Shown: positions 239 to 40,229, counted from the first letter of the stretch. The stretch: DNA of 64,000 nucleotides from Candidatus Aenigmatarchaeota archaeon (GCA_039000165.1 JAWBTW010000002.1:1-64000); one strand, 5' to 3'. Made by a program: numbers and translations. The notes: generated by a model from the letters alone, not told the origin.

Positions 239-280
239 CAAAGTTTAAAAGTTTTACTTTCTTAATTATTGAAGGGGAAA

Positions 281-355
281 ATGCCTGCAGGCCTTGTATT
301 AAAAAGAAGTAAGGAAAAGGGAAAAATTAAAGCAAAAAAAAGTTGGGGACACTAG
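281..355 (+). CDS. Putative RiPP precursor peptide 1, 24 aa (MPAGLVLKRSKEKGKIKAKKSWGH)
   Basis: Hand-translated; purine-rich SD-like GAAGGGGA directly upstream, TTTAAAA box about 30 nt upstream; stops 4 nt before the radical SAM gene; homologous to the peptide at 38934-39011. Confidence 0.8.
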   Translation: MPAGLVLKRSKEKGKIKAKKSWGH

Positions 356-359
356 ATTT

Positions 360-1352
360 TTGATTAAACTGATGGAAAACGGTAGTATTCTCTACAACCC
401 ACTTTCATTTAGATTTTATTATTTAGATAAATCTCAAACAGAAAAATTCTTAAAAGAAAACAAAAAAGTTAAAGTTTTAACACCTAAAGTTTCTAATCCG
501 TTTATTCTCTGTTTTTTTGACTTAACATATAAATGTAACTTAAAGTGCATTCATTGTCATAATGCTTATGAAAATATAAGAGAACTTACTTATGAGCAGA
601 AACTAAACGCCTTGAATCAGATTTTTGATTTAGGGGTTCTCCACATAAGTTTTGGTGGCGGAGAACCAACCCTCTATGAACATCTACTTGATATCCTCAA
701 GTATACTTCAAGACATACAACTTGTTCATTTGTGACTAATGGTACTCTACTTGACAAGGAATTCTGCAAAAAATTAAGGGGTTTGGTTTCTTACGTAGGT
801 GTGAGTTTAGACGGATTTAGAGAAACTCATGCCAAAATAAGAAATGCCGACATTTTCGATAAGGTTATAGAATCCATACAAATGCTTATTAGATATAAAA
901 TACCAGTTAGGGTAACCACGACTCCGACAAAAATAAATTACAAAGAGTTACCAGCTTTAGGTCGGTTTGTGCTTAAGGATTTAAAAGTATCTGCTTGGAA
1001 AATAATGAAATATATTCCGGAAGGAGGAAAAGGATTAGAACTAGCTTTAACTGACGAAGAAGAAAAATGGCTTTATACACAAATTAACAAATTAAGTAAA
1101 GAAAAGATTGATTACTATTTGTGTATAAAATGCCCTGCAGGAAAATCAGTTTTTAGTGTGTATGCGAATGGAGATGTTTCTCCATGTGGTTTTGCTCCTT
1201 TTATGATTTCTGGAAATTTACTTAAAACCCCACTAGTTGAAATACTGCAAAACGGTACTTTTTTTAAACTTATGAGAATAGTGAAATCTAATAAATGCAT
1301 TTCTGCAAACTTTTGGAGAGAAAATAAATTTTACAAAACTCCCGGTTGGTGA
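360..1352 (+). CDS. Radical SAM protein with SPASM/twitch-type C-terminus (putative peptide maturase 1)
   Basis: CNLKCIHC (CxxxCxxC), GGGEPTL, TNG and SLDG motifs; C-terminal CPAG...ANGDVSPC...GN. Confidence 0.92.
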   Translation: MIKLMENGSILYNPLSFRFYYLDKSQTEKFLKENKKVKVLTPKVSNPFILCFFDLTYKCNLKCIHCHNAYENIRELTYEQKLNALNQIFDLGVLHISFGGGEPTLYEHLLDILKYTSRHTTCSFVTNGTLLDKEFCKKLRGLVSYVGVSLDGFRETHAKIRNADIFDKVIESIQMLIRYKIPVRVTTTPTKINYKELPALGRFVLKDLKVSAWKIMKYIPEGGKGLELALTDEEEKWLYTQINKLSKEKIDYYLCIKCPAGKSVFSVYANGDVSPCGFAPFMISGNLLKTPLVEILQNGTFFKLMRIVKSNKCISANFWRENKFYKTPGW

Positions 1353-1356
1353 AAAC

Positions 1357-2418
1357 ATGGAGAGATTTTACTTTGGTTCGGTTGTTTGGAATGGAGAAAT
1401 GCACAACATATACTTAGAAAAAAAAGTAATCAGGTACAGATACTTACAACAAATGAAAAATGTCACTTACAGGAACGAAGGTCTTTTAGAAATTGGTATA
1501 AGATCTATACTTAAAAAAGCAAAATTTGTCAATGTTATCAATCAGAATGATAATTTAAAAGAAATATTACTCTTACTAAACTTTGAAGACATAGGCGATC
1601 TTTGTAGGCTTTGCTATTCTGGCGATAACTTAAACGGAATTATAGACGAGAAAAGCAACGAAATTATTGGCTACACTTATAGAGGGGTGGAAACACCTAA
1701 ATCACAATCGAGAAAAGCATTTTATCCAAAGTATTTTAAAATAGAAAACGATGCATACTGTGGTTTAGAATTTAAGGGTTGTGGAAAAGAAGGAGAAACA
1801 ATCATTTTAGACAAATTCAGGAAAGTTGGTAACACAGAAAAAGATTATGGATGTGAGGGTGGACTATATCTTTTTGAAGCTTTAGATGAAACGAACATGC
1901 TTATAAGAATGAATAAAAAAAATCCTGTTTTAATCGCTTCATTTGAATTACCGATTGAAGTTAATTCACCATACTATCAAACACAAAAATTAGGGTTAAT
2001 GGTTAGGGGTGTGAAATCATCTATAAGGATTTCAGAAATGGTAGACACAGGAAAAGAAATCATAAGTAGTTTAAACATCAAACCTGAAGAATATTGTCAA
2101 GTAGTTAGTGAGAATATCTTCAAAGAAGCGAAACAACTATTTGAAATAGGATACGTACACGTATCACCAACAGAACAAAATACTGATGCTACAGGAAGCA
2201 TTACGGATTTATCCTTCTTACCAAAATTAGAAAAACTTACTGACATTTATTGTAACCTCCTTAATTATGTAAGAATAGCAAACTCTGTTTGGAAATATAC
2301 AAGTGGGAAGGAAAATAAAAAATCTGTTATAGAAACTGTAAAAGATGTTTTTGAAGTTGAAACCAACTCTTTAAAGAAAATTTCTGAAGAAATATACAGC
2401 AGGTTTCAACAGAGTTAA
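1357..2418 (+). CDS. Uncharacterised protein with SelO/YdiU-like kinase-fold motifs
   Basis: LEFKGCG, LMVRGVKSSIRISE and GYVHVSPTEQN...GSITD resemble SelO LKGxG, RxAxSxIR and GFxHGxxNxDN...TID; starts 4 nt after the rSAM stop. Confidence 0.5.
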   Translation: MERFYFGSVVWNGEMHNIYLEKKVIRYRYLQQMKNVTYRNEGLLEIGIRSILKKAKFVNVINQNDNLKEILLLLNFEDIGDLCRLCYSGDNLNGIIDEKSNEIIGYTYRGVETPKSQSRKAFYPKYFKIENDAYCGLEFKGCGKEGETIILDKFRKVGNTEKDYGCEGGLYLFEALDETNMLIRMNKKNPVLIASFELPIEVNSPYYQTQKLGLMVRGVKSSIRISEMVDTGKEIISSLNIKPEEYCQVVSENIFKEAKQLFEIGYVHVSPTEQNTDATGSITDLSFLPKLEKLTDIYCNLLNYVRIANSVWKYTSGKENKKSVIETVKDVFEVETNSLKKISEEIYSRFQQS

Positions 2419-2425
2419 AATCTGA

Positions 2426-3061
2426 TTAAATTATTTTTTGAACAATTAAACCTAAAGCGTAATCAACTCTTTTAATTCTTTTAAATCCTGTCTCTTTCAA
2501 CCTTCTTACTATCCCTTTCAAGTAATTTTTTCCTTGAAGTTGACCAGGTTTTCCTATGTAATGAAAAATTTTTCCATTATTTTTAAGAACTCTAAACAAT
2601 TCAGAGTAAAATTCTTTTGAGTAAAGCTCGGGAGCTAAAGAAATTCTCGGCGGGTCATGAATTACAAAATCAAAAAAGTCTTCAGGAAATTTTTTTATTT
2701 CCTCAAAAACATCTCCTTGAATTAAAAAAATTTTTGGATTTTCAAAAAGCTCTTTTGAATATGGGTTAAGCCTAGCAATTTTAATTACATTTTTATCCTT
2801 TTCTACTGTAAAGACCTTTTCAACTTTCCTTTTCCTTGCAGCCAGGATTGCAGTATAGCCTAAACCTGCGCAGGTATCTAAAATTTTTCCATGAATTCTT
2901 CCCAAACTTCTAACCTTTAGAATAGAATCAAGCTTAGGGTCGACTTCTTTTATTCTGTGCATGTGAATTCCTGAAATTTCTAGAGTCGGCCAAGTCTTTG
3001 TTTGAACAAGCCGATAAAACTTCTTGGTTTTCTTACTAAAAAACTTGATTTCTTCTCGCAT
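2426..3061 (-). CDS. SAM-dependent methyltransferase (archaeal COG2521-like)
   Basis: LDTCAGLGYTA motif I, IHDPPR, PTLEISGIHMHR. Confidence 0.85.
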   Translation of the reverse strand: MREEIKFFSKKTKKFYRLVQTKTWPTLEISGIHMHRIKEVDPKLDSILKVRSLGRIHGKILDTCAGLGYTAILAARKRKVEKVFTVEKDKNVIKIARLNPYSKELFENPKIFLIQGDVFEEIKKFPEDFFDFVIHDPPRISLAPELYSKEFYSELFRVLKNNGKIFHYIGKPGQLQGKNYLKGIVRRLKETGFKRIKRVDYALGLIVQKII

Positions 3062-3152
3062 AAGAATAATTTGAAACTTAAAAAGTTTAAGTTAAGTTTG
3101 CTTGTTTTTTAAATCATATTCTATTTTTAATACCTTAAATTAAAATGATAAT

Positions 3153-4133
3153 ATGTGGATTGTTGAAACTTTTAATCTGACAAAAGAATTTAACGGTCTT
3201 AAAGCTGTTAATAAAGTAAGTCTAAAAATTAAAGAAGGGGAAATTTTTGGTCTGCTTGGACCGAACGGAGCAGGAAAAACAACTTTTATTTCAATGCTTT
3301 GTACTCTATTGAAACCAACAAAAGGAACAGCAAAAGTTAACGGTTTTGATATAATTAAAGAGCAAAGGAATGTTAGAAAATCTATAGGTATAGTTTTTCA
3401 AGACCCTAGCCTAGATAACAGATTAACAGCAAAAGAAAACTTAGAAATGCATGCTCGCTTGTATAGCGTGCCAAAAGAAGAAAGAAAGAAGAGAATAGAA
3501 GAAGTTTTAAAATTAGTTGGACTTTATGAAAGAGCTAACGAGCTTGTTAGAAATTATTCTGGAGGAATGAAAAGAAGGTTAGAAATAGCAAGGGGTTTGA
3601 TACATTACCCAAAAGTTCTTTTTTTAGACGAGCCTACTTTAGGTTTAGACCCTCAGACAAGAGAACACATTTGGGAATACATAAAGAAACTAGCTGAAAA
3701 AGAAAACATTACAATTTTACTAACAACTCATTACATGGAAGAAGCTGATGCTTTGTGTGATAGAGTGGCTATAATGGATTATGGAGAAATAAAAGTTTTA
3801 GATACTCCTGAAAATTTGAAAAATAGTTTGGAAGGAGATGTCATAACCTTAGAAGTAAAAAATGCTGAAAAATTTTTGGAAAAAGTTAAAAAGTTAGATT
3901 CGATAAGGAAAGTTCAAGTTACAGAAAAGAAAATTAGTATGACCGTTAAAAATGCTGAAAAGTTTACACCAAAGTTATTAGAATTTGCTAGGAAGAATAA
4001 ATTTTTTGTCGAGTCTATAAGCATAAGAAAACCTAGCCTTGGAGACGTTTTTCTCCATTATACAGGAAGAGAAATCAGAGAAGAAACAGAAGAAAGCAAA
4101 GAAATGATGAAAAGGAGAGCGAGAATGATATGA
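3153..4133 (+). CDS. ABC-2/DrrA-type exporter ATP-binding subunit
   Basis: GPNGAGKTT, YSGGMKRR, LFLDEPT. Confidence 0.95.
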   Translation: MWIVETFNLTKEFNGLKAVNKVSLKIKEGEIFGLLGPNGAGKTTFISMLCTLLKPTKGTAKVNGFDIIKEQRNVRKSIGIVFQDPSLDNRLTAKENLEMHARLYSVPKEERKKRIEEVLKLVGLYERANELVRNYSGGMKRRLEIARGLIHYPKVLFLDEPTLGLDPQTREHIWEYIKKLAEKENITILLTTHYMEEADALCDRVAIMDYGEIKVLDTPENLKNSLEGDVITLEVKNAEKFLEKVKKLDSIRKVQVTEKKISMTVKNAEKFTPKLLEFARKNKFFVESISIRKPSLGDVFLHYTGREIREETEESKEMMKRRARMI

Positions 4134-6310: not shown

Positions 6311-7583
6311 CTATTTTACTTTTTGTTAGTTCTTCAATTTTATCCAAAAAATTTTTCTTTACTACTTCTTTCTCATCCAACTCAGGAACTTTTTCTTTCA
6401 ACCTAAGATAGATAGAAGAAGCTAAACTTTTAATTTTTTCTTCCTCAGTTGCGAGTTTAAGCTTCAATACATACTCGTCTAAACCAAAAAAGCTTTTAGA
6501 ATAGATTGGAGAAAGGATTGAAAGCAGACTTTCTACATAATTGAGAAACTTTAATTTATTTCCAACCAGATCTTTCCCTTTTTGGATTTCTCTTTCTGTT
6601 TCACTTAAACTTAAGCACAGTTTAATAATTTCCATCTCATTTTCTGGTACCCTTAAGAAATAAGTTATATTCAATAAATCCCATCTTTTAAGGAAGTGTG
6701 CAACTATCTTCATGCCCTCGTATCCATTGTAATTCTCTCCCTTTCTTCTAACCTCAGGTAAACAAACAAAAAATTCATCAAAAACTTCAGGTTTATCAGA
6801 AACAAAAATTCTAAAACCAGCTTGTGAGGAAGGAGCTGAATCGCTTCTTGGATTATCTGTCATAAAAATTGAAAACTTACTTTTGCACCTATAAAAATTT
6901 AAAAATTTTTCAAAAGCTTCGGCTTTCTTAAAGTTAAGTCTTGGTAAAATTATTCCTGTAAACCTATTGTTCTTGTCAAAATTGTAAACAGAACCGAAAC
7001 AATTTTCTTTTAAAATTCCCAACCTTTCAGCTAAGTATCTCACAGCTTCTAAGTAAGCTCCAGAGTTAAGTCCTACAGAATAACCTAAGTCTTTGATTTC
7101 ATTCAAACCTTCAAAAGAATAAGGAATTTTTTCAAATTCTTTTGCAGCATTTTTTGCAGCCTCGTTCAAATCTTCTTTTTTTAAGTTAAGCTCAGCTAAC
7201 CTTTTGCCGAATTTTTTGACTAACTTTTTAATGTCTAATTCGCTTACGTTTAAAAAAGAAGAAACTTTGCCGATTTGACCCATGAGCTCTTTCAATTCGT
7301 TTATTTCTTTGCTTTGAAGTGGTAAGCCTTCCAACCATAACGTTGAAAGATTTTTTGAACCTTCTGGGTTAAGTGTATCATCAACGTCAAACATTATTGC
7401 TTTTAAAGAGTTTGAAAAAGTCCCACCCCAACTCTTTTCAATAAAAAATACAGAACTTAAACTTGGGTCAAAAAATAAGTCTTTCTCAAGATAAAGCTCG
7501 CTTAAGACTTTTTTATAATTTTCTCTTTCATTAAAACTTGAAAGGCTCTGCATTTTTCCACAAACTTTTGAGGTAAACATCAA
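6279..7583 (-). CDS. HAD-family hydrolase (phosphoserine phosphatase-like) with helical C-terminal extension
   Basis: FDVDDTL motif I, LNSGA motif II, K, TDNPRSD motif IV; start uncertain. Confidence 0.75.
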   Translation of the reverse strand: MMFTSKVCGKMQSLSSFNERENYKKVLSELYLEKDLFFDPSLSSVFFIEKSWGGTFSNSLKAIMFDVDDTLNPEGSKNLSTLWLEGLPLQSKEINELKELMGQIGKVSSFLNVSELDIKKLVKKFGKRLAELNLKKEDLNEAAKNAAKEFEKIPYSFEGLNEIKDLGYSVGLNSGAYLEAVRYLAERLGILKENCFGSVYNFDKNNRFTGIILPRLNFKKAEAFEKFLNFYRCKSKFSIFMTDNPRSDSAPSSQAGFRIFVSDKPEVFDEFFVCLPEVRRKGENYNGYEGMKIVAHFLKRWDLLNITYFLRVPENEMEIIKLCLSLSETEREIQKGKDLVGNKLKFLNYVESLLSILSPIYSKSFFGLDEYVLKLKLATEEEKIKSLASSIYLRLKEKVPELDEKEVVKKNFLDKIEELTKSKIDGEFYGRPSK

Positions 7584-8319
7584 AAACTTTAACTAAGGAG
7601 GCATCACTAGACCATACTGAAGTAAACCTAAAACTTTCTTTTTTCATTTCGGTATCAAGTCTTAGCAAAATTTCCCTACCATCTATATCAATCATTCTTG
7701 GGTGCAAATTTGTCTTAAAAACTCTTATCTCTACTCCATGATCGTTAAACCATTTTGCTCTTCTGTAGTTTGACTCGTTTATTCCCCCTATCGCAATAGT
7801 TCTAATTTTTACTCCTCTTCTTATACAAGAATCAACAGCCTCAGCAAGGTTAGAAGTCCAAGAAAAATCTCTGCTTACAACATAAGCATAACTTTTTGCT
7901 CTATCAAACATATCACAAAGCCTATCTATGAAATCTTTCCATCCTTTTCCTTGAGAAGTCCAGATTCCATTCAAAACTTGACTCTCAATTCTTGGCTTAA
8001 GAATAAAAGAAATTTTTTCTACTTTTTCTTTAGCTTCTCTTATTTTTCTTTCGTTCTCTTCTATTAAATTTCTAAGCGAAACTTCTGGACTAACTGCCTT
8101 AAATTCTTTCGGTCTTATACTATAAACTTCTACCAATTGCCTTTCGGCTAGCCTCTCAAGAACTTCATAAATTTTTGATTGAGGAACTTTTGACTCTCTA
8201 CTTATCTCACTTGCTTTAGAAGGACCAAGAAAAACTAAAGCGGAATAAACTTTGGCTTCATAATCGTTCATACCAAAGTTTTTAAGTAAATTCACAAGTT
8301 CTTCGCTACTTATCTCCAC
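7531..8319 (-). CDS. TrmB-family transcriptional regulator
   Basis: FGMNDYEAKVYSAL...VPQSKIYEVLERL wHTH plus C-terminal effector domain (HPRMIDIDG). Confidence 0.9.
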   Translation of the reverse strand: MEISSEELVNLLKNFGMNDYEAKVYSALVFLGPSKASEISRESKVPQSKIYEVLERLAERQLVEVYSIRPKEFKAVSPEVSLRNLIEENERKIREAKEKVEKISFILKPRIESQVLNGIWTSQGKGWKDFIDRLCDMFDRAKSYAYVVSRDFSWTSNLAEAVDSCIRRGVKIRTIAIGGINESNYRRAKWFNDHGVEIRVFKTNLHPRMIDIDGREILLRLDTEMKKESFRFTSVWSSDASLVKVFDVYLKSLWKNAEPFKF

Positions 8320-8479
8320 AAATTAAAAGTAAACTCAAGAATATAAAAATCTTTTGAATTTTACCACTTGAGTGGTGAATCTAAGAAAACTACAGAAGTG
8401 GTAAATTCCACGAGTTTTTGTCAAACTATAGTACCATAACTATATCATACTTCTTCTTTCAAGCTTAAGTCGTGAGAAA

Positions 8480-8782
8480 ATGAAAGTTGTCAAATTTTTG
8501 AAAGGCTACTTTAAACCTTTACCATTATTGGGTGGACTTCTTGGGTCTGGAGCACTTTACTGGGCAGGTTTTTGTGTGGGCTTTTTGAAAGAAAGTATAC
8601 CAAACCTTTTACCAAGTTTGGCTAGCGGAAACTATCATCAACTTTTTTATAATTCCTTTCAAACTGCTTACAACTACGCTGCCCAACTTGGCTTGATTGG
8701 GGGAATAAGCGGAACCATTCTCACAAGACATGGTTTGGATTATCTTGGCAAAAAAATTTGGAAGAAAAAGGAGGTGAAATAA
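8480..8782 (+). CDS. Small glycine-rich membrane protein
   Basis: Two hydrophobic Gly-rich segments; first gene of an operon divergent from the TrmB gene. Confidence 0.6.
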   Translation: MKVVKFLKGYFKPLPLLGGLLGSGALYWAGFCVGFLKESIPNLLPSLASGNYHQLFYNSFQTAYNYAAQLGLIGGISGTILTRHGLDYLGKKIWKKKEVK

Positions 8783-9087
8783 TGGGAATAATTGATTGGT
8801 TAAAAACTCCTGAAGGAGCTTTTGTTATTGCTTTGCCTATAGGCTACTTTGGAGGGAAATGGCTAGAAGGAAAAATTACAGATTACTTACAAAAAAACAG
8901 AGAAGTGATGAGAGAAAATATAAAACAGGCTATAAGAGAAGGTTTAAGTGGTAACCCTGAACCAACCTATTCTTTAATCACGAAAGAAATCCAAAAATTG
9001 GAAAACAAACTTGAAAACTTGATTTTAAGCCAATACCAAGAGCTTAGCTCAAGAATTTCGAAACTTGAAAAATATAAGAAAGAGTGA
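8782..9087 (+). CDS. Small membrane-anchored coiled-coil protein
   Basis: ATG at 8782 preceded by a GGAGGTG SD; single TM followed by coiled coil. Confidence 0.65.
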   Translation: MGIIDWLKTPEGAFVIALPIGYFGGKWLEGKITDYLQKNREVMRENIKQAIREGLSGNPEPTYSLITKEIQKLENKLENLILSQYQELSSRISKLEKYKKE

Positions 9088-36070: not shown

Positions 36071-36154
36071 GGGCTCGTCCGGTAACCTGGATAGCCGACT
36101 GCGCTTCGGTTTTGAGGAAACGCAGTAGTGAGGGTTCAAATCCCTCCGAGCCCA
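36071..36154 (+). tRNA. tRNA-Arg(TCG) with 10-nt intron (36110-36119)
   Basis: GGGCTCG/CGAGCCC; CTGCG-CT-TCG-G[TTTTGAGGAA]A-CGCAG; A20 present; CTTC pairs with intron GAGG. Confidence 0.9.
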
Positions 36155-37198: not shown

Positions 37199-37765
37199 AT
37201 GAAAAAGAAAGATAGAAGGAATGTTGCTGGTATCCTAATTTTTGTAGCAAGCGCGCAATTCATCATAGCTCTAAAGATTGCAGAAGCTTTATACCCTAAC
37301 TATAACGTTTCTTCAAATTATATCAGTGATTTAGGAGTTGGGCCTTCTGCTTTCATTTTTAACTCTTCCGTTTTTCTGCTCGGCTTTTTAGCTTTAATTT
37401 CTGCTTATTTTCTTTTAATAGAAAAAGAACGAAAAGATTTTCTATTTTGCTTAGTTTTGGCGGGAATCGGTGCTATGGGGGTTGGAATTTTTACTGAAGA
37501 CTTTGGCTTATTACATACCATCTTTTCTTTCATCACATTTTTCTTTGGAGCTCTAGCTTCTATCTTTTCTTACAAAACCCAAAAATCAACCTTTTCTCTC
37601 CTATTTTTATTGCTTGGTTCTATTTCCCTTATTTCCTTGATTCTTTTTGGTTTAGGAGCTGACCTTGGTTTAGGAAAAGGTGGAATGGAAAGGATGATAG
37701 CCTATCCTATTTTAATCTGGGCTTTAGGTTTTGGTGCTTATACAGCTAAGGAAAAATACTTTTGA
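37199..37765 (+). CDS. DUF998-like membrane protein
   Basis: YP.Y...NYISDLG, GVGIF.E, GGMERM..YP. Confidence 0.8.
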   Translation: MKKKDRRNVAGILIFVASAQFIIALKIAEALYPNYNVSSNYISDLGVGPSAFIFNSSVFLLGFLALISAYFLLIEKERKDFLFCLVLAGIGAMGVGIFTEDFGLLHTIFSFITFFFGALASIFSYKTQKSTFSLLFLLLGSISLISLILFGLGADLGLGKGGMERMIAYPILIWALGFGAYTAKEKYF

Positions 37766-37839
37766 AGAAGTTTAAATTTTTTGACAAAATATTTTTAAAG
37801 GATAAAACGATTTATTAATTTGACTTGAGTTAGATTTAG

Positions 37840-37935
37840 GCAGGGGTCGCCTAGCCTGGTCGATGGCGCAGGGCTTAGAAAATTAGGAAACCCTGTGGCT
37901 TAGTGCCTTCCTGGGTTCAAATCCCAGCCCCTGCA
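37840..37935 (+). tRNA. tRNA-Leu(TAG) with 10-nt intron (37880-37889)
   Basis: GCAGGGG/CCCCTGC; CAGGG-CT-TAG-A[AAATTAGGAA]A-CCCTG; long variable arm; CTTA pairs with intron TAGG. Confidence 0.9.
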
Positions 37936-37969
37936 CAAAAATAAGATTAACAGTAAGAATTAACTACAC

Positions 37970-38953
37970 TTAGCTACTAAAACTTCTCCAGTATTTTATG
38001 GCTATGCATTCGTTTAGTTCAAAATTTTTAAAAACTTCAAAAGTTTCCAATAGTTTTCTTAGTGGTGTTTTTAAACAATTTCCAACAACCAACTTTGGAA
38101 AAAAACCGCAAGGACTAACATCCCCATTCGCATAAATTGAAAAAACACCATCGCCCATAGGACATTTGAGACGATAAAACTGATCCATAACATTTCCGAA
38201 CCTTAATTTTTTTAACTTACGATAAATCCATCTTTCTTCTTTAGGGCTAAGCATTATCTCCAAACTTTCTTTGTTTTCTGGAATAAACCTCATTATTTTC
38301 CAAGCGCTTGGTTTAATTTTTTTCTTTATAAACTTAGCAAGTTTAGGAATCTCTCTGTAATTTAACTTTGTAGGGACGGTTATTATTCTTACTCTTATTC
38401 CATTTTCTTTAAGTATTTTAATACTTTCCAAGACCCTATCCCAAATATCAGCATTTCTCATCAAGTTATGTCCTTTTTTCATCCCATCTAAACTGACACT
38501 TACATAACTTACACAATTTTTTAGTTGGTTTGCCAACTCTTCGGTCATAGTAGTTCCGTTAGTTGTTATGGAACATGAAGCTCTTTTATAAGTGTATTTC
38601 AGAATTTTAATCAAATCTTTTCTTAAAGTTGGTTCACCACCACCAAAGCTTATGTGTAGTACACCAACCCCAAATACTTGATTAAGGATTTTTGAGAAAG
38701 AATTGAAAGGTAGTTCAAAAGGTCTATACCTGTTATGACAATGTCTGCATTTTAAGTTACACTTATAAGTTAAATCGATAAAAGCTTCGAAAAAATTATT
38801 TTCAAATTTAGGCTTAATTATCTTCACTCTGTTTGTACGAAGAAATTTAATTAGTTGGTTTTTGTTCAAAAGAAAAAATTCAAAACAGGAGGGGTCATAG
38901 CCAATTCCCCCTTCCTTTAAAAGTTTTACCCATTTAGTTTCCCCATTTTTCAA
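37970..38953 (-). CDS. Radical SAM protein with SPASM/twitch-type C-terminus (putative peptide maturase 2)
   Basis: CNLKCRHC, GVLHISFGGGEPTL (identical to 360-1352), CPMG...YANGDVSPCGF. Confidence 0.92.
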   Translation of the reverse strand: MKNGETKWVKLLKEGGIGYDPSCFEFFLLNKNQLIKFLRTNRVKIIKPKFENNFFEAFIDLTYKCNLKCRHCHNRYRPFELPFNSFSKILNQVFGVGVLHISFGGGEPTLRKDLIKILKYTYKRASCSITTNGTTMTEELANQLKNCVSYVSVSLDGMKKGHNLMRNADIWDRVLESIKILKENGIRVRIITVPTKLNYREIPKLAKFIKKKIKPSAWKIMRFIPENKESLEIMLSPKEERWIYRKLKKLRFGNVMDQFYRLKCPMGDGVFSIYANGDVSPCGFFPKLVVGNCLKTPLRKLLETFEVFKNFELNECIAIKYWRSFSS

Positions 38954-39011
38954 CAGCTTTCACCTTGCTCTTTTTCTCTTTGAAAACAAGCGGCGAACAA
39001 CATCTCTTCAT
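38934..39011 (-). CDS. Putative RiPP precursor peptide 2, 25 aa (MKRCCSPLVFKEKKSKVKAVEKWGN)
   Basis: Hand-translated; GAGGT SD; ATG 1 nt after the nucleotidyltransferase stop; overlaps the rSAM TTG start by 20 nt; homologous to 281-355. Confidence 0.8.
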   Translation of the reverse strand: MKRCCSPLVFKEKKSKVKAVEKWGN

Positions 39012-39012
39012 T

Positions 39013-39648
39013 TTACCTCACCTGTTTTTTAAATTTTTTAAGGTCATCGAAAGTATCTATCTCCAATATTGTATGGGGAGTATAAAAATAAAAAATGCTA
39101 TAGTTATGCGCTAGCAACAGGATTGCTAAGTCTGAATATTCAAAATTATCTTCTATTTTCTCTTCTATTTTTTTCAAAATACTTACGTTCCATATGGAAA
39201 GTGAAGTCGTAGGTTTAATATATTTCAGAGAACTTACTTTAACAGTTCTTCTCCTACCTTTTGCATGAAACAAGCAAGCTGGCTGGAGCTTTTTGTAAAC
39301 TTTTATGCTTTCTCTTATTACCTCACTTGGTTGGATTATGTCAGAAGGTAGGACTAAAACATCTTTCCCAGACTTAATATTTATTATTTCAAGCATATTA
39401 CGAACACAATAATCAGAACTTCCTACAAAATAGTTTATCTTTTTTTGTTGTAAGTAGGGAATGAAAGCTTCATGCCTATATCTGAGGCAAACTACTATGT
39501 TTGATTTTTTAATTCCACTTTCTAACAAACTATCAAGAGCATAATCTATCAATTTTTTGTTGTTGATTTCAATTAAAGGCTTTGGTATTTCATAAGTAAG
39601 TGGTCTTAATCTTTCCCCTTTTCCACCTGCCATTAAAATTGCCAGCAT
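39013..39648 (-). CDS. Nucleotidyltransferase (NTP_transferase family)
   Basis: AILMAGGKGERLRPLT...PKPL, PSD, EIDTFDDL. Confidence 0.88.
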   Translation of the reverse strand: MLAILMAGGKGERLRPLTYEIPKPLIEINNKKLIDYALDSLLESGIKKSNIVVCLRYRHEAFIPYLQQKKINYFVGSSDYCVRNMLEIINIKSGKDVLVLPSDIIQPSEVIRESIKVYKKLQPACLFHAKGRRRTVKVSSLKYIKPTTSLSIWNVSILKKIEEKIEDNFEYSDLAILLLAHNYSIFYFYTPHTILEIDTFDDLKKFKKQVR

Positions 39649-39662
39649 AACTTATCTTAACC

Positions 39663-40133
39663 CTATTTATACACTACTATTTTTGTTGTCTCAAAAGCAT
39701 CTTCCACAACTTTTTTGGGTTCTATTCCCCATTCTTTAATTAAGTCATGCGTTATATAGATGAAATATCCTTTATCCATTAGGTTTAGAGCTATAGTTAC
39801 AAGATAGTAGGGATTAAAATTCACCAAAATTGCCTTGTTTAAAAGTTCTCCTGCGTATTCAGTAGGAAAGATTATTAGTTTCAACCTGTGCTTTGAGTAT
39901 GGTGCAGGGATTTCAATTTCTTTTATGAAATCATCTATTGCCTTCTTCAATTTTTTACCTTCAAACACATCGATATAAATCTTAGCAACGTTTACTCTAA
40001 ACCAATAGCCTTTCCATTCAGCATCAAAATGTGTCTTGCTTATATCTTCGAACCTTATTCCTGGGAATTTTTTTCTTAAATTTTTTTTAACAAGATTTTT
40101 AATTAACATCTTCCCAATTAAAGTTAGATACAA
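39663..40133 (-). CDS. Hypothetical protein (weak DUF1444/YtpQ-like)
   Basis: YIT..LIKEWGI....V...A pattern; probable start at ATG 40109. Confidence 0.55.
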   Translation of the reverse strand: MYLTLIGKMLIKNLVKKNLRKKFPGIRFEDISKTHFDAEWKGYWFRVNVAKIYIDVFEGKKLKKAIDDFIKEIEIPAPYSKHRLKLIIFPTEYAGELLNKAILVNFNPYYLVTIALNLMDKGYFIYITHDLIKEWGIEPKKVVEDAFETTKIVVYK

Positions 40134-40229
40134 AAAAAGATAAAAAATTTTCTTTTGATTTGAGAGTTAAACTTAAATCTCAATCTTTAAGTTAAATTAT
40201 TTGTTTACCAATTTATTAGAGGTGAGAAA

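Follow-up and report, generated by a model that had tools for sequence, protein, structure and literature searches.

We analyzed a stretch of 64,000 nucleotides (nt) from a Candidatus Aenigmatarchaeota archaeon (GCA_039000165.1, JAWBTW010000002.1:1-64000; the window), and in it a set of four minus-strand genes, here called locus 2, that encodes a very short peptide, a radical S-adenosylmethionine (SAM) enzyme, and two further proteins. The first gene (39663..40109, minus strand) specifies a protein of 148 amino acids (aa) from no known family, the second (39013..39648, minus strand) a cassette-specific nucleotidyltransferase of the sugar-1-phosphate type (211 aa), the third (38934..39011, minus strand) a precursor-like peptide of 25 aa, MKRCCSPLVFKEKKSKVKAVEKWGN, and the fourth (37970..38953, minus strand) a radical SAM enzyme of 327 aa with a TTG start. 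The genes are separated by a 14-nt gap and a 1-nt gap and end in a 20-nt overlap. The ATG of the peptide lies 1 nt past the stop codon of the transferase gene, with the Shine-Dalgarno motif GGTGAGGT immediately 5' of it, and the TTG at 38953 lies inside the peptide open reading frame (ORF) and is the sole canonical start 5' of the conserved N-terminal block of the enzyme. A preliminary description made from the sequence had claimed four tightly packed genes with these 1-nt and 20-nt junctions and an upstream Shine-Dalgarno motif, and all four ORFs and both junctions were found as claimed. The first ORF is open to a TTG at 40133 (39663-40133, 156 aa); however, the ATG at 40109 is the better start, because the database protein P0158 and the DNA homology to a metagenomic locus, L012, both start there.

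The radical SAM enzyme matches Pfam Radical_SAM (PF04055; 5.4e-26, 92.2 bits, cut-off 29.5) and SPASM (PF13186; 23.7 bits, cut-off 21.5), and the transferase matches NTP_transferase (PF00483; 1.8e-15, 57.6 bits, cut-off 21.2). No Pfam family was matched by the peptide or by the first protein in either its 156-aa or its 148-aa form. Archaeal housekeeping genes (aIF2-alpha, Nop10, PAC2, and ribosomal protein S2) flank the locus, and the genome that carries the window amounts to 783 kb in 25 contigs. A sister cassette, locus 1, spans 269-2418 of the same window on the plus strand. It encodes a 24-aa peptide, MPAGLVLKRSKEKGKIKAKKSWGH (281..355, plus strand; its ATG has a GGGG motif upstream and is preferred over the TTG at 269), a paralogous radical SAM enzyme of 330 aa (360..1352, plus strand), and a protein of 353 aa with a predicted protein-kinase-like fold (1357..2418, plus strand), which takes the place of the transferase and the 148-aa protein. 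The two radical SAM enzymes are 50% identical over 320 aa (E 1e-114), and the motifs that had been quoted as common to them are visible in the alignment.

The peptide gene and its radical SAM enzyme

Comparison of the family loci indicates that the small peptide is a real, conserved gene. A six-frame reading of 14 loci (two in the window and 12 in metagenomes) found a short ORF directly upstream of the radical SAM gene at every one, ending a few bases from the start of the enzyme or overlapping it. All but one of these ORFs (13/14) end in [W/F]-G-[H/Q/N]-stop. The peptides of type 2, at locus 2 and at the metagenomic loci L010 to L012, end in W-G-N; those of type 1 end in W-G-H (locus 1, L017, L019, L020, and L021), W-G-Q (L014 to L016), or F-G-Q (L013). 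The ORF at L018 is different, with the ending W-S-Q-stop and an unrelated N terminus. The N termini are conserved within each type, as M-P-A-G-[L/F]-[V/L/I]-[I/L/V]-K in type 1 and M-K-R-C-C-S-P-L-V-F-K in type 2, and peptides of both types can be aligned, with M1, K11, and G24 invariant and W23 present in 9 of the 10 aligned sequences. A GGTG, GGAGG, or GGGG motif stands 5 to 9 nt before the start codon in 12 of 13 peptide ORFs, L021 being the exception. At locus 2 the peptide and the enzyme are translationally coupled, since the start codon of the enzyme lies within the last codons of the peptide gene. The peptide proposed in the preliminary description is a conserved gene, coupled in translation to a paralogous radical SAM gene.

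The peptide genes of L010 to L012 differ from one another by only 1 to 2 nt and from that of the window at 14 to 15 of 78 nt. The 15 differences between the window and L010 give nine synonymous and four nonsynonymous codons, all four in the charged central linker. At L013, two base changes turn the W into F, which keeps the aromatic residue and alters V-G to F-S in the overlapping frame of the enzyme. The third base of the overlapping enzyme codon is always T, as the stop codon of the peptide requires, and the conserved N-terminal block of the peptide lies clear of any overlap with the enzyme frame. These three features speak for selection acting on the peptide frame. A six-frame translation of the 783-kb genome contains 25 matches to the C-terminal motif by itself and just two to the N-terminal block, each of these two immediately before one of the radical SAM paralogues. 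Because this block is confined to the two loci in the genome and an ORF lies upstream of all 12 metagenomic family members, the arrangement of peptide and enzyme exceeds chance. The idea that the small ORF and the enzyme are one frameshifted gene was ruled out, as each has its own Shine-Dalgarno motif and start codon and the peptide always stops exactly one residue past W/F-G.

The enzyme family is very rare. Among 5.8 billion protein clusters, only 9 fall within an E-value of 1e-20 or lower, two of them being the window's own, and among 1.84 billion representatives there are three family members (336, 294.5, and 170.8 bits), followed at 156.5 bits by a generic radical SAM protein. The metagenome scan returned 27 loci, 12 of which (L010 to L021) are 45 to 78% identical and the other 15 at most 37%. 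No member was found in 185,579 species genomes (three loci, all at most 27% identical), a set from which the genome studied here may be left out, or in a scan of viral contigs (five loci, all at most 31% identical). None of 60 relatives carries a family member, and six of them have generic radical SAM matches only (35 to 37%); in the phylum, the family is present in 1 of 371 genomes, the window's own. Of the database entries for the family, none comes from NCBI or UniRef and none has a specific name. Two of the metagenomic enzymes are disrupted: that of L018 (3992-5020) by a frameshift near residue 55, and that of L021 (3926-4831) by a deletion in the N-terminal domain and several frameshifts, with the peptide ORF intact.

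A predicted complex supports the binding of the peptide to the enzyme. The window enzyme, with an alignment of 9 sequences, and its peptide, with an alignment of 10, were modeled in a protein-only prediction that left out SAM and the clusters. The complex scored 0.66 compared to 0.02 for the best of three controls. Of 157 solved complexes, 116 attained this mark, as did 2 of 215 mismatched pairs; these counts serve as a rough guide for self-made alignments and a partner of fewer than 30 residues. At least 54% of contacts are common to the runs, the predicted local distance difference test (pLDDT) value of the partner is at least 63 (about 64 for the peptide), and enzyme residues 18-37 form the main predicted contact with the peptide. 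Given the conserved arrangement and this prediction, we consider it very probable that the peptide and the enzyme are a functional substrate-enzyme pair.

The enzyme belongs to the radical SAM superfamily, with C64-X3-C68-X2-C71 in addition to the PF04055 match over the cut-off. An N-terminal domain of about 55 aa precedes this CX3CX2C motif. In the SPASM domain, CX9-15GX4C is followed by CX2CX5CX3C...C, which makes two clusters, and twitch domains have a reduced set of cysteines and one cluster. The C-terminal domain here keeps C264-X12-G277-X4-C282 and C316 without the CX2CX5CX3C block and reads as a one-cluster, twitch-like domain; the cysteines that are invariant in the family beyond CX3CX2C are C127, C264, C282, and C316. 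Among solved structures, SkfB (6efn) is the nearest by sequence (62.8 bits, residues 56-320). No NCBIfam model tried on the enzyme exceeded its cut-off, the best being TIGR04053 with 96 bits (cut-off 395). For locus 2 and locus 1, respectively, the values are 14.0 and 16.4 bits for XyeB (TIGR04496, cut-off 450), 25.9 and 24.3 bits for GrrM/OscB (TIGR04261, cut-off 310), 17.8 and 16.5 bits for FxsB (TIGR04269, cut-off 370), and 56.3 and 65.2 bits for WgkB (NF050035, cut-off 650). By these models, the enzyme belongs to none of the triceptide maturase families (XyeB, GrrM/OscB, or FxsB) and not to WgkB either. Elsewhere in the genome, a third, unrelated radical SAM protein (contig C10, 5840-6433, in a 528-aa open frame) scores 60.5 bits with the WgkB model, level with the cassette enzymes.

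Viperins are also among the solved relatives (about 51 bits), and the PADLOC pVip models, including "viperins associated with kinases," match with 95 and 94 bits. One could therefore suppose that the cassette is a defense module in which the radical SAM enzyme modifies a nucleoside triphosphate (NTP), the kinase-fold protein or the nucleotidyltransferase handles nucleotides, and the small ORF is a coupling or regulatory leader; the nucleotide-using folds of the cassette partners and the mobile islets adjoining tRNA genes, described below, would suit such a module. However, the pVip match covers only positions 9-187 of 262, the common radical SAM core, and the NCBIfam viperin model (NF038283; cut-off 180) gives 83.0 and 81.7 bits. 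The C-terminal part of the enzyme is SPASM/twitch-like with invariant cysteines, and we know of no viperins with such cysteines at this place. Moreover, both ends of the peptide are conserved at the protein level and the predicted complex passes its controls, and we regard a viperin-like role as highly improbable.

Co-inheritance of the partner genes

Genome comparison indicates that the four genes of locus 2 are one unit that moves horizontally, because a same-genus genome has an empty site, homology to metagenomic loci is limited to the four genes, the surroundings of one of these loci are unrelated, and the partner genes are found nowhere else. G001, a genome of the same genus, has flanks 83 to 91% identical to those of locus 2, and there only about 72 bp separate the tRNA region (window 37777-37936) from the aIF2-alpha region (window 40189 onward), compared to 2,252 bp in the window. 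The resulting insertion/deletion block (37937..40188; 2,252 bp) holds exactly the four genes, and its GC content is 30.8%, compared to 33.8 to 35.1% in the flanks. Homology at the DNA level extends from 40108 to 37982 for L012 (70.9%) and from 40085 to 37982 for L011, and it ends there. In L012 the cassette lies between a Cdc6/Orc1-like gene (1131-2381 of that locus) and the gene of a LAGLIDADG-bearing DNA methylase (7254-8975), with small ORFs nearby, surroundings unrelated to the aIF2-alpha, Nop10, and tRNA genes of the window; this region looks like an integrated element or a plasmid-like region. The ends of the block in the window have no direct repeats or att-like duplications, only AT-rich repeats at chance level.

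The tRNA gene that borders the insertion (37840..37935, plus strand) was recognized by Rfam (44.3 bits, E 1.2e-8) and missed by ARAGORN. With 12 extra nt after the anticodon, it is probably a tRNA-Leu gene that has an intron, the anticodon UAG, and a long variable arm. Another genome of the genus, G005, has two copies of the 3' part of this tRNA-Leu region upstream of aIF2-alpha (contig C30, locus L056, 1336-1478 and 2235-2292), about 750 bp apart, which look like the trace of a further insertion at this hot spot. Just beyond the tRNA gene of the window lies a gene for a DUF998 membrane protein (37199-37765), which is outside the insertion since it is conserved in G001.

The transferase gene precedes the peptide gene in 4/4 type 2 loci (the window, L011, L012, and L010, where only the 3' end of the transferase gene is present, at a contig edge), and the gene for the 148-aa protein precedes that of the transferase in L011 and L012. 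Thus, the survey of neighborhoods bears out the link, suggested by the preliminary description, between the NTP-transferase and this subtype of radical SAM enzyme, and the two share one insertion/deletion block. The transferase qualifies as a PF00483 sugar-1-phosphate nucleotidyltransferase through its Pfam score and an intact catalytic signature: G-G-x-G-x-R-L-R-P-x-T-Y-x-x-P-K-P-L, D103, and E196/D198 are invariant in 4/4 clusters. No NCBIfam equivalog reached its cut-off (best 59 bits, cut-off 292), and NF045495 matched with 1.7e-13, also below its cut-off. There are only 4 transferase clusters (100, 84, 58, and 58% identity) among the 5.8 billion, the next score being 63 bits, and no orthologue was found in 36 relatives, where the best match was 38% identical over residues 3-121. 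Distant NTP-transferase matches in relatives (L041 and L042) were set aside, as they lie in ordinary contexts without a radical SAM enzyme or a peptide.

The 148-aa protein has no match in Pfam, NCBIfam, PADLOC, or PHROGs and no orthologue in the 36 relatives. It forms only 2 of the 5.8 billion clusters, the window's own and one at 74% identity; its counterparts in L011 and L012 are 75% identical, and their genes too precede that of the transferase. Its model does not yield a usable fold, because the pLDDT is 54.6 and the best match in a fold search reaches a Z score of 5.0 on about 55 to 64 residues. Matches of the protein in the protein atlas (at most 0.90) share no common family and were rejected; the PD-(D/E)XK rows among them (0.86 to 0.87) are flagged as often due to chance.

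Do the transferase and the 148-aa protein work on the peptide, or are they passengers of a mobile islet that supply, for example, an activated sugar for surface glycans, leaving the peptide and the radical SAM enzyme as the only functional pair? The transferase bears the signature of an ordinary sugar-1-phosphate nucleotidyltransferase, type 1 cassettes work without it, the type 2 loci represent only about two lineages, and we know of no peptide-modifying enzyme with its fold. On the other hand, the genes are packed with gaps of 14 nt and 1 nt and an overlap of 20 nt, and the boundary of the G001 block and that of the homology to L012 enclose exactly the four genes. The two proteins occur in no other context among the 5.8 billion clusters, and in L010 to L012 the frame of the transferase overlaps the start of the peptide gene. 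We consider it rather unlikely that the two genes are passengers. The linkage suggests tentatively, with a chance below even, that the transferase acts on the peptide.

In the sister cassette, the 353-aa protein lies downstream of the radical SAM enzyme in 6 of the 8 type 1 metagenomic loci with downstream sequence; the two loci without it are L018 and L021, both with a disrupted enzyme, and L014 is cut by the end of its contig. It had no Pfam match even at an E-value of 10, and its best sequence match in the PDB has an E-value of 0.69. The model has a pLDDT of 48 overall and is confident only for residues 223-353. The top 50 matches of a fold search were nearly all kinases (Z 8.2 to 9.9), among them a Csk complex (Z 9.9), SelO (6eac; Z 9.8, root mean square deviation 3.1, 126 residues), and class III lanthipeptide kinase domains (Z 8.4 to 8.7), and the protein atlas gives a MchC/SelO lead of 0.91. 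The preliminary description had proposed the same core chemistry with a different NTP-dependent tailoring enzyme. In favor of this, the sister cassette has a predicted protein-kinase-like, nucleotide-using fold in place of the transferase; that the transferase tailors the peptide is suggested by linkage.

Locus 1, together with a gene for a 211-aa methyltransferase (2426-3061), is itself an insertion (240-3159) beside a tRNA-Lys gene (165-239). In the same-genus genome G003, the tRNA-Lys and ABC transporter genes are 49 bp apart, compared to 2.9 kb in the window, and at the same site G001 has 1,024 bp and G005 1,275 bp of other DNA. Two type 1 loci contain a second radical SAM/SPASM protein after the kinase-fold gene, at 3648-5027 of L017 (459 aa) and at 2703-4052 of L020 (split).

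Possible chemistry and related systems

Our favored interpretation, which we hold to be probable, is that a mobile cassette of peptide, radical SAM enzyme, transferase, and 148-aa protein makes a modified peptide, with the radical SAM enzyme modifying the peptide and the other two proteins tailoring it. The peptide would be translated from its own Shine-Dalgarno site, coupled to the enzyme, and it is predicted to be held by the short N-terminal domain of the enzyme together with the surface that lies between its barrel and its twitch-like domain. A SAM-derived radical and a presumed single auxiliary Fe-S cluster would then form a carbon-carbon cross-link from the aromatic ring to the last residue of W/F-G-N/H/Q. 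The resulting three-residue ring would resemble those in triceptides, tryglysin, and the products of WprB, by analogy to the published ring motifs between residues i and i+2; we give a ring at the C-terminal tripeptide somewhat less than an even chance. The transferase and the 148-aa protein, which are co-inherited, would most likely add, for example, a nucleotide or a sugar-phosphate at or near the C terminus of the peptide, and in the sister cassette the kinase-fold protein might fill the tailoring role.

Several observations weigh against this interpretation. Part of the conservation of W-G is shared with the enzyme, because the C-terminal codons of the peptide overlap its reading frame. 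The enzyme stays under the cut-off in every named peptide maturase model tried, and the N-terminal segments (6/6 tried) gave no Pfam match to PqqD or the recognition element (RRE) of ribosomally synthesized and posttranslationally modified peptides (RiPPs) at E-values up to 10. To our knowledge, sugar-1-phosphate nucleotidyltransferases do not act on peptides; the linkage of the transferase comes from four type 2 loci and about two lineages; and the cassette has no conserved gene for a protease, a transporter, or immunity. Finally, the predicted complex pairs the W-G-N end (peptide residues 17-25) with the N-terminal domain of the enzyme (18-37) and places peptide residues 5-15 against the conserved W-K-I-M block at 214-222, so the modified site could lie in the N-terminal block instead of W-G-N.

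In that case, the block P-A-G-L-V-I-K or C-C-S-P-L-V-F-K would be modified, and W-G-X would be a follower-type handle bound by the N-terminal domain. The contacts with the lowest error, between peptide residues 19-24 and enzyme residues 24-33, fit such a handle; the interface also includes enzyme residues 56, 100, 264-265, and 316, which adjoin the cluster motifs, and the N-terminal block is as conserved as the C terminus. However, the model lacks SAM and the clusters and the pLDDT of the peptide is only about 64, known radical SAM ring-forming systems act on aromatic-x-X motifs, and the N-terminal block of type 1 has neither Cys nor an aromatic residue. We consider modification of the N-terminal block unlikely.

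Modification at W-G-N/H/Q would bring the cassette close to the triceptides (XncB/XyeB, OscB/GrrM, and MscB/FxsB). In the passages cited on these systems, rings join Trp or Phe to the C-beta of Asn, Arg, Asp, or Ser at positions i and i+2, a short precursor lies, as in the cassette, directly upstream of its radical SAM enzyme, there of the SPASM/twitch group, and W-x-N and F-x-N are known ring motifs (PMC11002830); an aromatic-x-X motif is present in 13 of our 14 loci. In contrast to triceptides, the motif here is single, without repeats, and at the extreme C terminus, and the cassette has an enzyme whose C-terminal domain reads as one-cluster, an archaeal host, and a nucleotidyltransferase or kinase-fold partner. 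The preliminary description had taken W-G-N for a triceptide motif. The match to aromatic-x-Asn stands as an analogy; the enzyme falls outside the triceptide maturase families (14 to 26 bits compared to cut-offs of 310 to 450), and, since it fails their models and its C-terminal domain looks twitch-like, "triceptide" is used here for likeness and not for membership.

The tryglysin system (WgkA/B/C) resembles the cassette in precursor length (21 to 25 aa) and in a W-G-x motif one or two residues from the C terminus; the cited passages describe the core VNSWGKH (PMC8092268, PMC9389541) and a W-G-K ring near the C terminus of a 21-aa precursor (PMC8092268). WprB is described as a twitch-type cyclophane maturase, likewise similar in enzyme type, whose cluster is said to include six archaeal sequences (PMC11851443). 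Unlike in tryglysin and WprB, the third residue of the motif here is N, H, or Q and not K or R, and no separate RRE protein was recognized in the cassette; the enzyme scores 56 to 65 bits with the WgkB model against a cut-off of 650. SkfB is a peptide maturase with a twitch domain, as proposed here. It makes a Cys-to-Met thioether, whereas type 1 peptides have no Cys, and the similarity to SkfB is low.

For the tailoring step there are parallels in other peptides. MccB of microcin C is an example of nucleotide-using C-terminal tailoring of a ribosomal peptide. In the sections cited, the kinase PsmK and the NTP-transferase-like PsmN decorate the C-terminal serine of the lasso peptide pseudomycoidin (PMC6993621), and the SelO-family proteins MchC and MceJ are needed to attach a siderophore to the C terminus of microcins (PMC3281104, PMC6071977). 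A kinase-fold or NTP-transferase-type enzyme thus stands beside a small peptide whose C-terminal residue is decorated, a pattern that matches the alternation of kinase fold and transferase between loci 1 and 2. Unlike the transferase of locus 2, PsmN was modeled on aminoglycoside nucleotidyltransferases (PMC6993621), whose fold differs from PF00483, and the MchC/SelO link of the 353-aa protein consists of the atlas lead of 0.91 and a generic kinase-fold match. These systems serve as analogies for tailoring of a peptide end and not as evidence for tailoring at locus 2. An uncharacterized radical SAM peptide cluster with two nucleotidyltransferase genes is noted in one of the cited papers (PMC9389541).

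Mycofactocin (MftA/MftC) and pyrroloquinoline quinone (PQQ; PqqA/PqqE) likewise begin with a very short precursor that is modified at or near its C terminus by a SPASM-group radical SAM enzyme. By this logic, the C-terminal tripeptide would be cross-linked and excised, and the transferase would add a nucleotide handle to give a small redox or signaling molecule. The conserved residues at the extreme C terminus of a very short peptide and the apparent place of the maturase in the SPASM/twitch group, which includes MftC and PqqE, agree with this, and MobA- and CobY-type relatives of the transferase put nucleotides on cofactors (the NF045495 match mentioned above is below its cut-off). However, the model of the mycofactocin maturase MftC (TIGR03962; cut-off 265) gives 64.7 and 77.3 bits, and a single cofactor would not usually have cross-link partners as variable as these (W or F; H, Q, or N). 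The cassette has no MftB or PqqD and no conserved peptidase or user enzyme, and it is an accessory islet absent from congeners. Hence, we judge a cofactor pathway to be improbable.

If a tailored peptide is the product, it might be an archaeal counterpart, made in DPANN, of the "Trojan horse" compounds among peptide-nucleotides and siderophore microcins: a Lys-rich peptide of about 25 aa with a W-G-N/H/Q ring closed by the twitch-type enzyme and a C-terminal cap, either a nucleotide or phospho-sugar (PF00483 type) or a phosphate or AMP (SelO-like, in the sister cassette), encoded on tRNA-adjacent islets and used by the symbiont on competitors or on its host. We put this forward as speculation that is quite unlikely to hold in full. 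In the tiny genomes of DPANN archaea any accessory gene comes at a cost, and still two versions of the cassette are kept in this genome of 0.78 Mb. The favored interpretation could bring a new ring chemistry at a peptide C terminus and the first peptide-tailoring role for the sugar-nucleotidyltransferase fold; if the transferase is a passenger, there would still be a new family of peptide and maturase with clean evidence of horizontal mobility. We found no description of the cassette in the literature on archaeal triceptide radical SAM enzymes, DPANN RiPPs, or radical SAM precursor peptides of Aenigmatarchaeota, and we know of no characterized radical-SAM-modified peptide from archaea. The enzyme family, the precursor family, and the set of partners appear to be undescribed, a distinction drawn without comparison to the six archaeal sequences of the WprB cluster.

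No RNA data set is listed for the region 37900-40200 of the window; all eight runs are DNA metagenomes of hot springs from two studies, and five of these runs may be sources of this DNA. At 36071-36154 of the window lies another tRNA gene that was recognized by Rfam (46.6 bits) and missed by ARAGORN.

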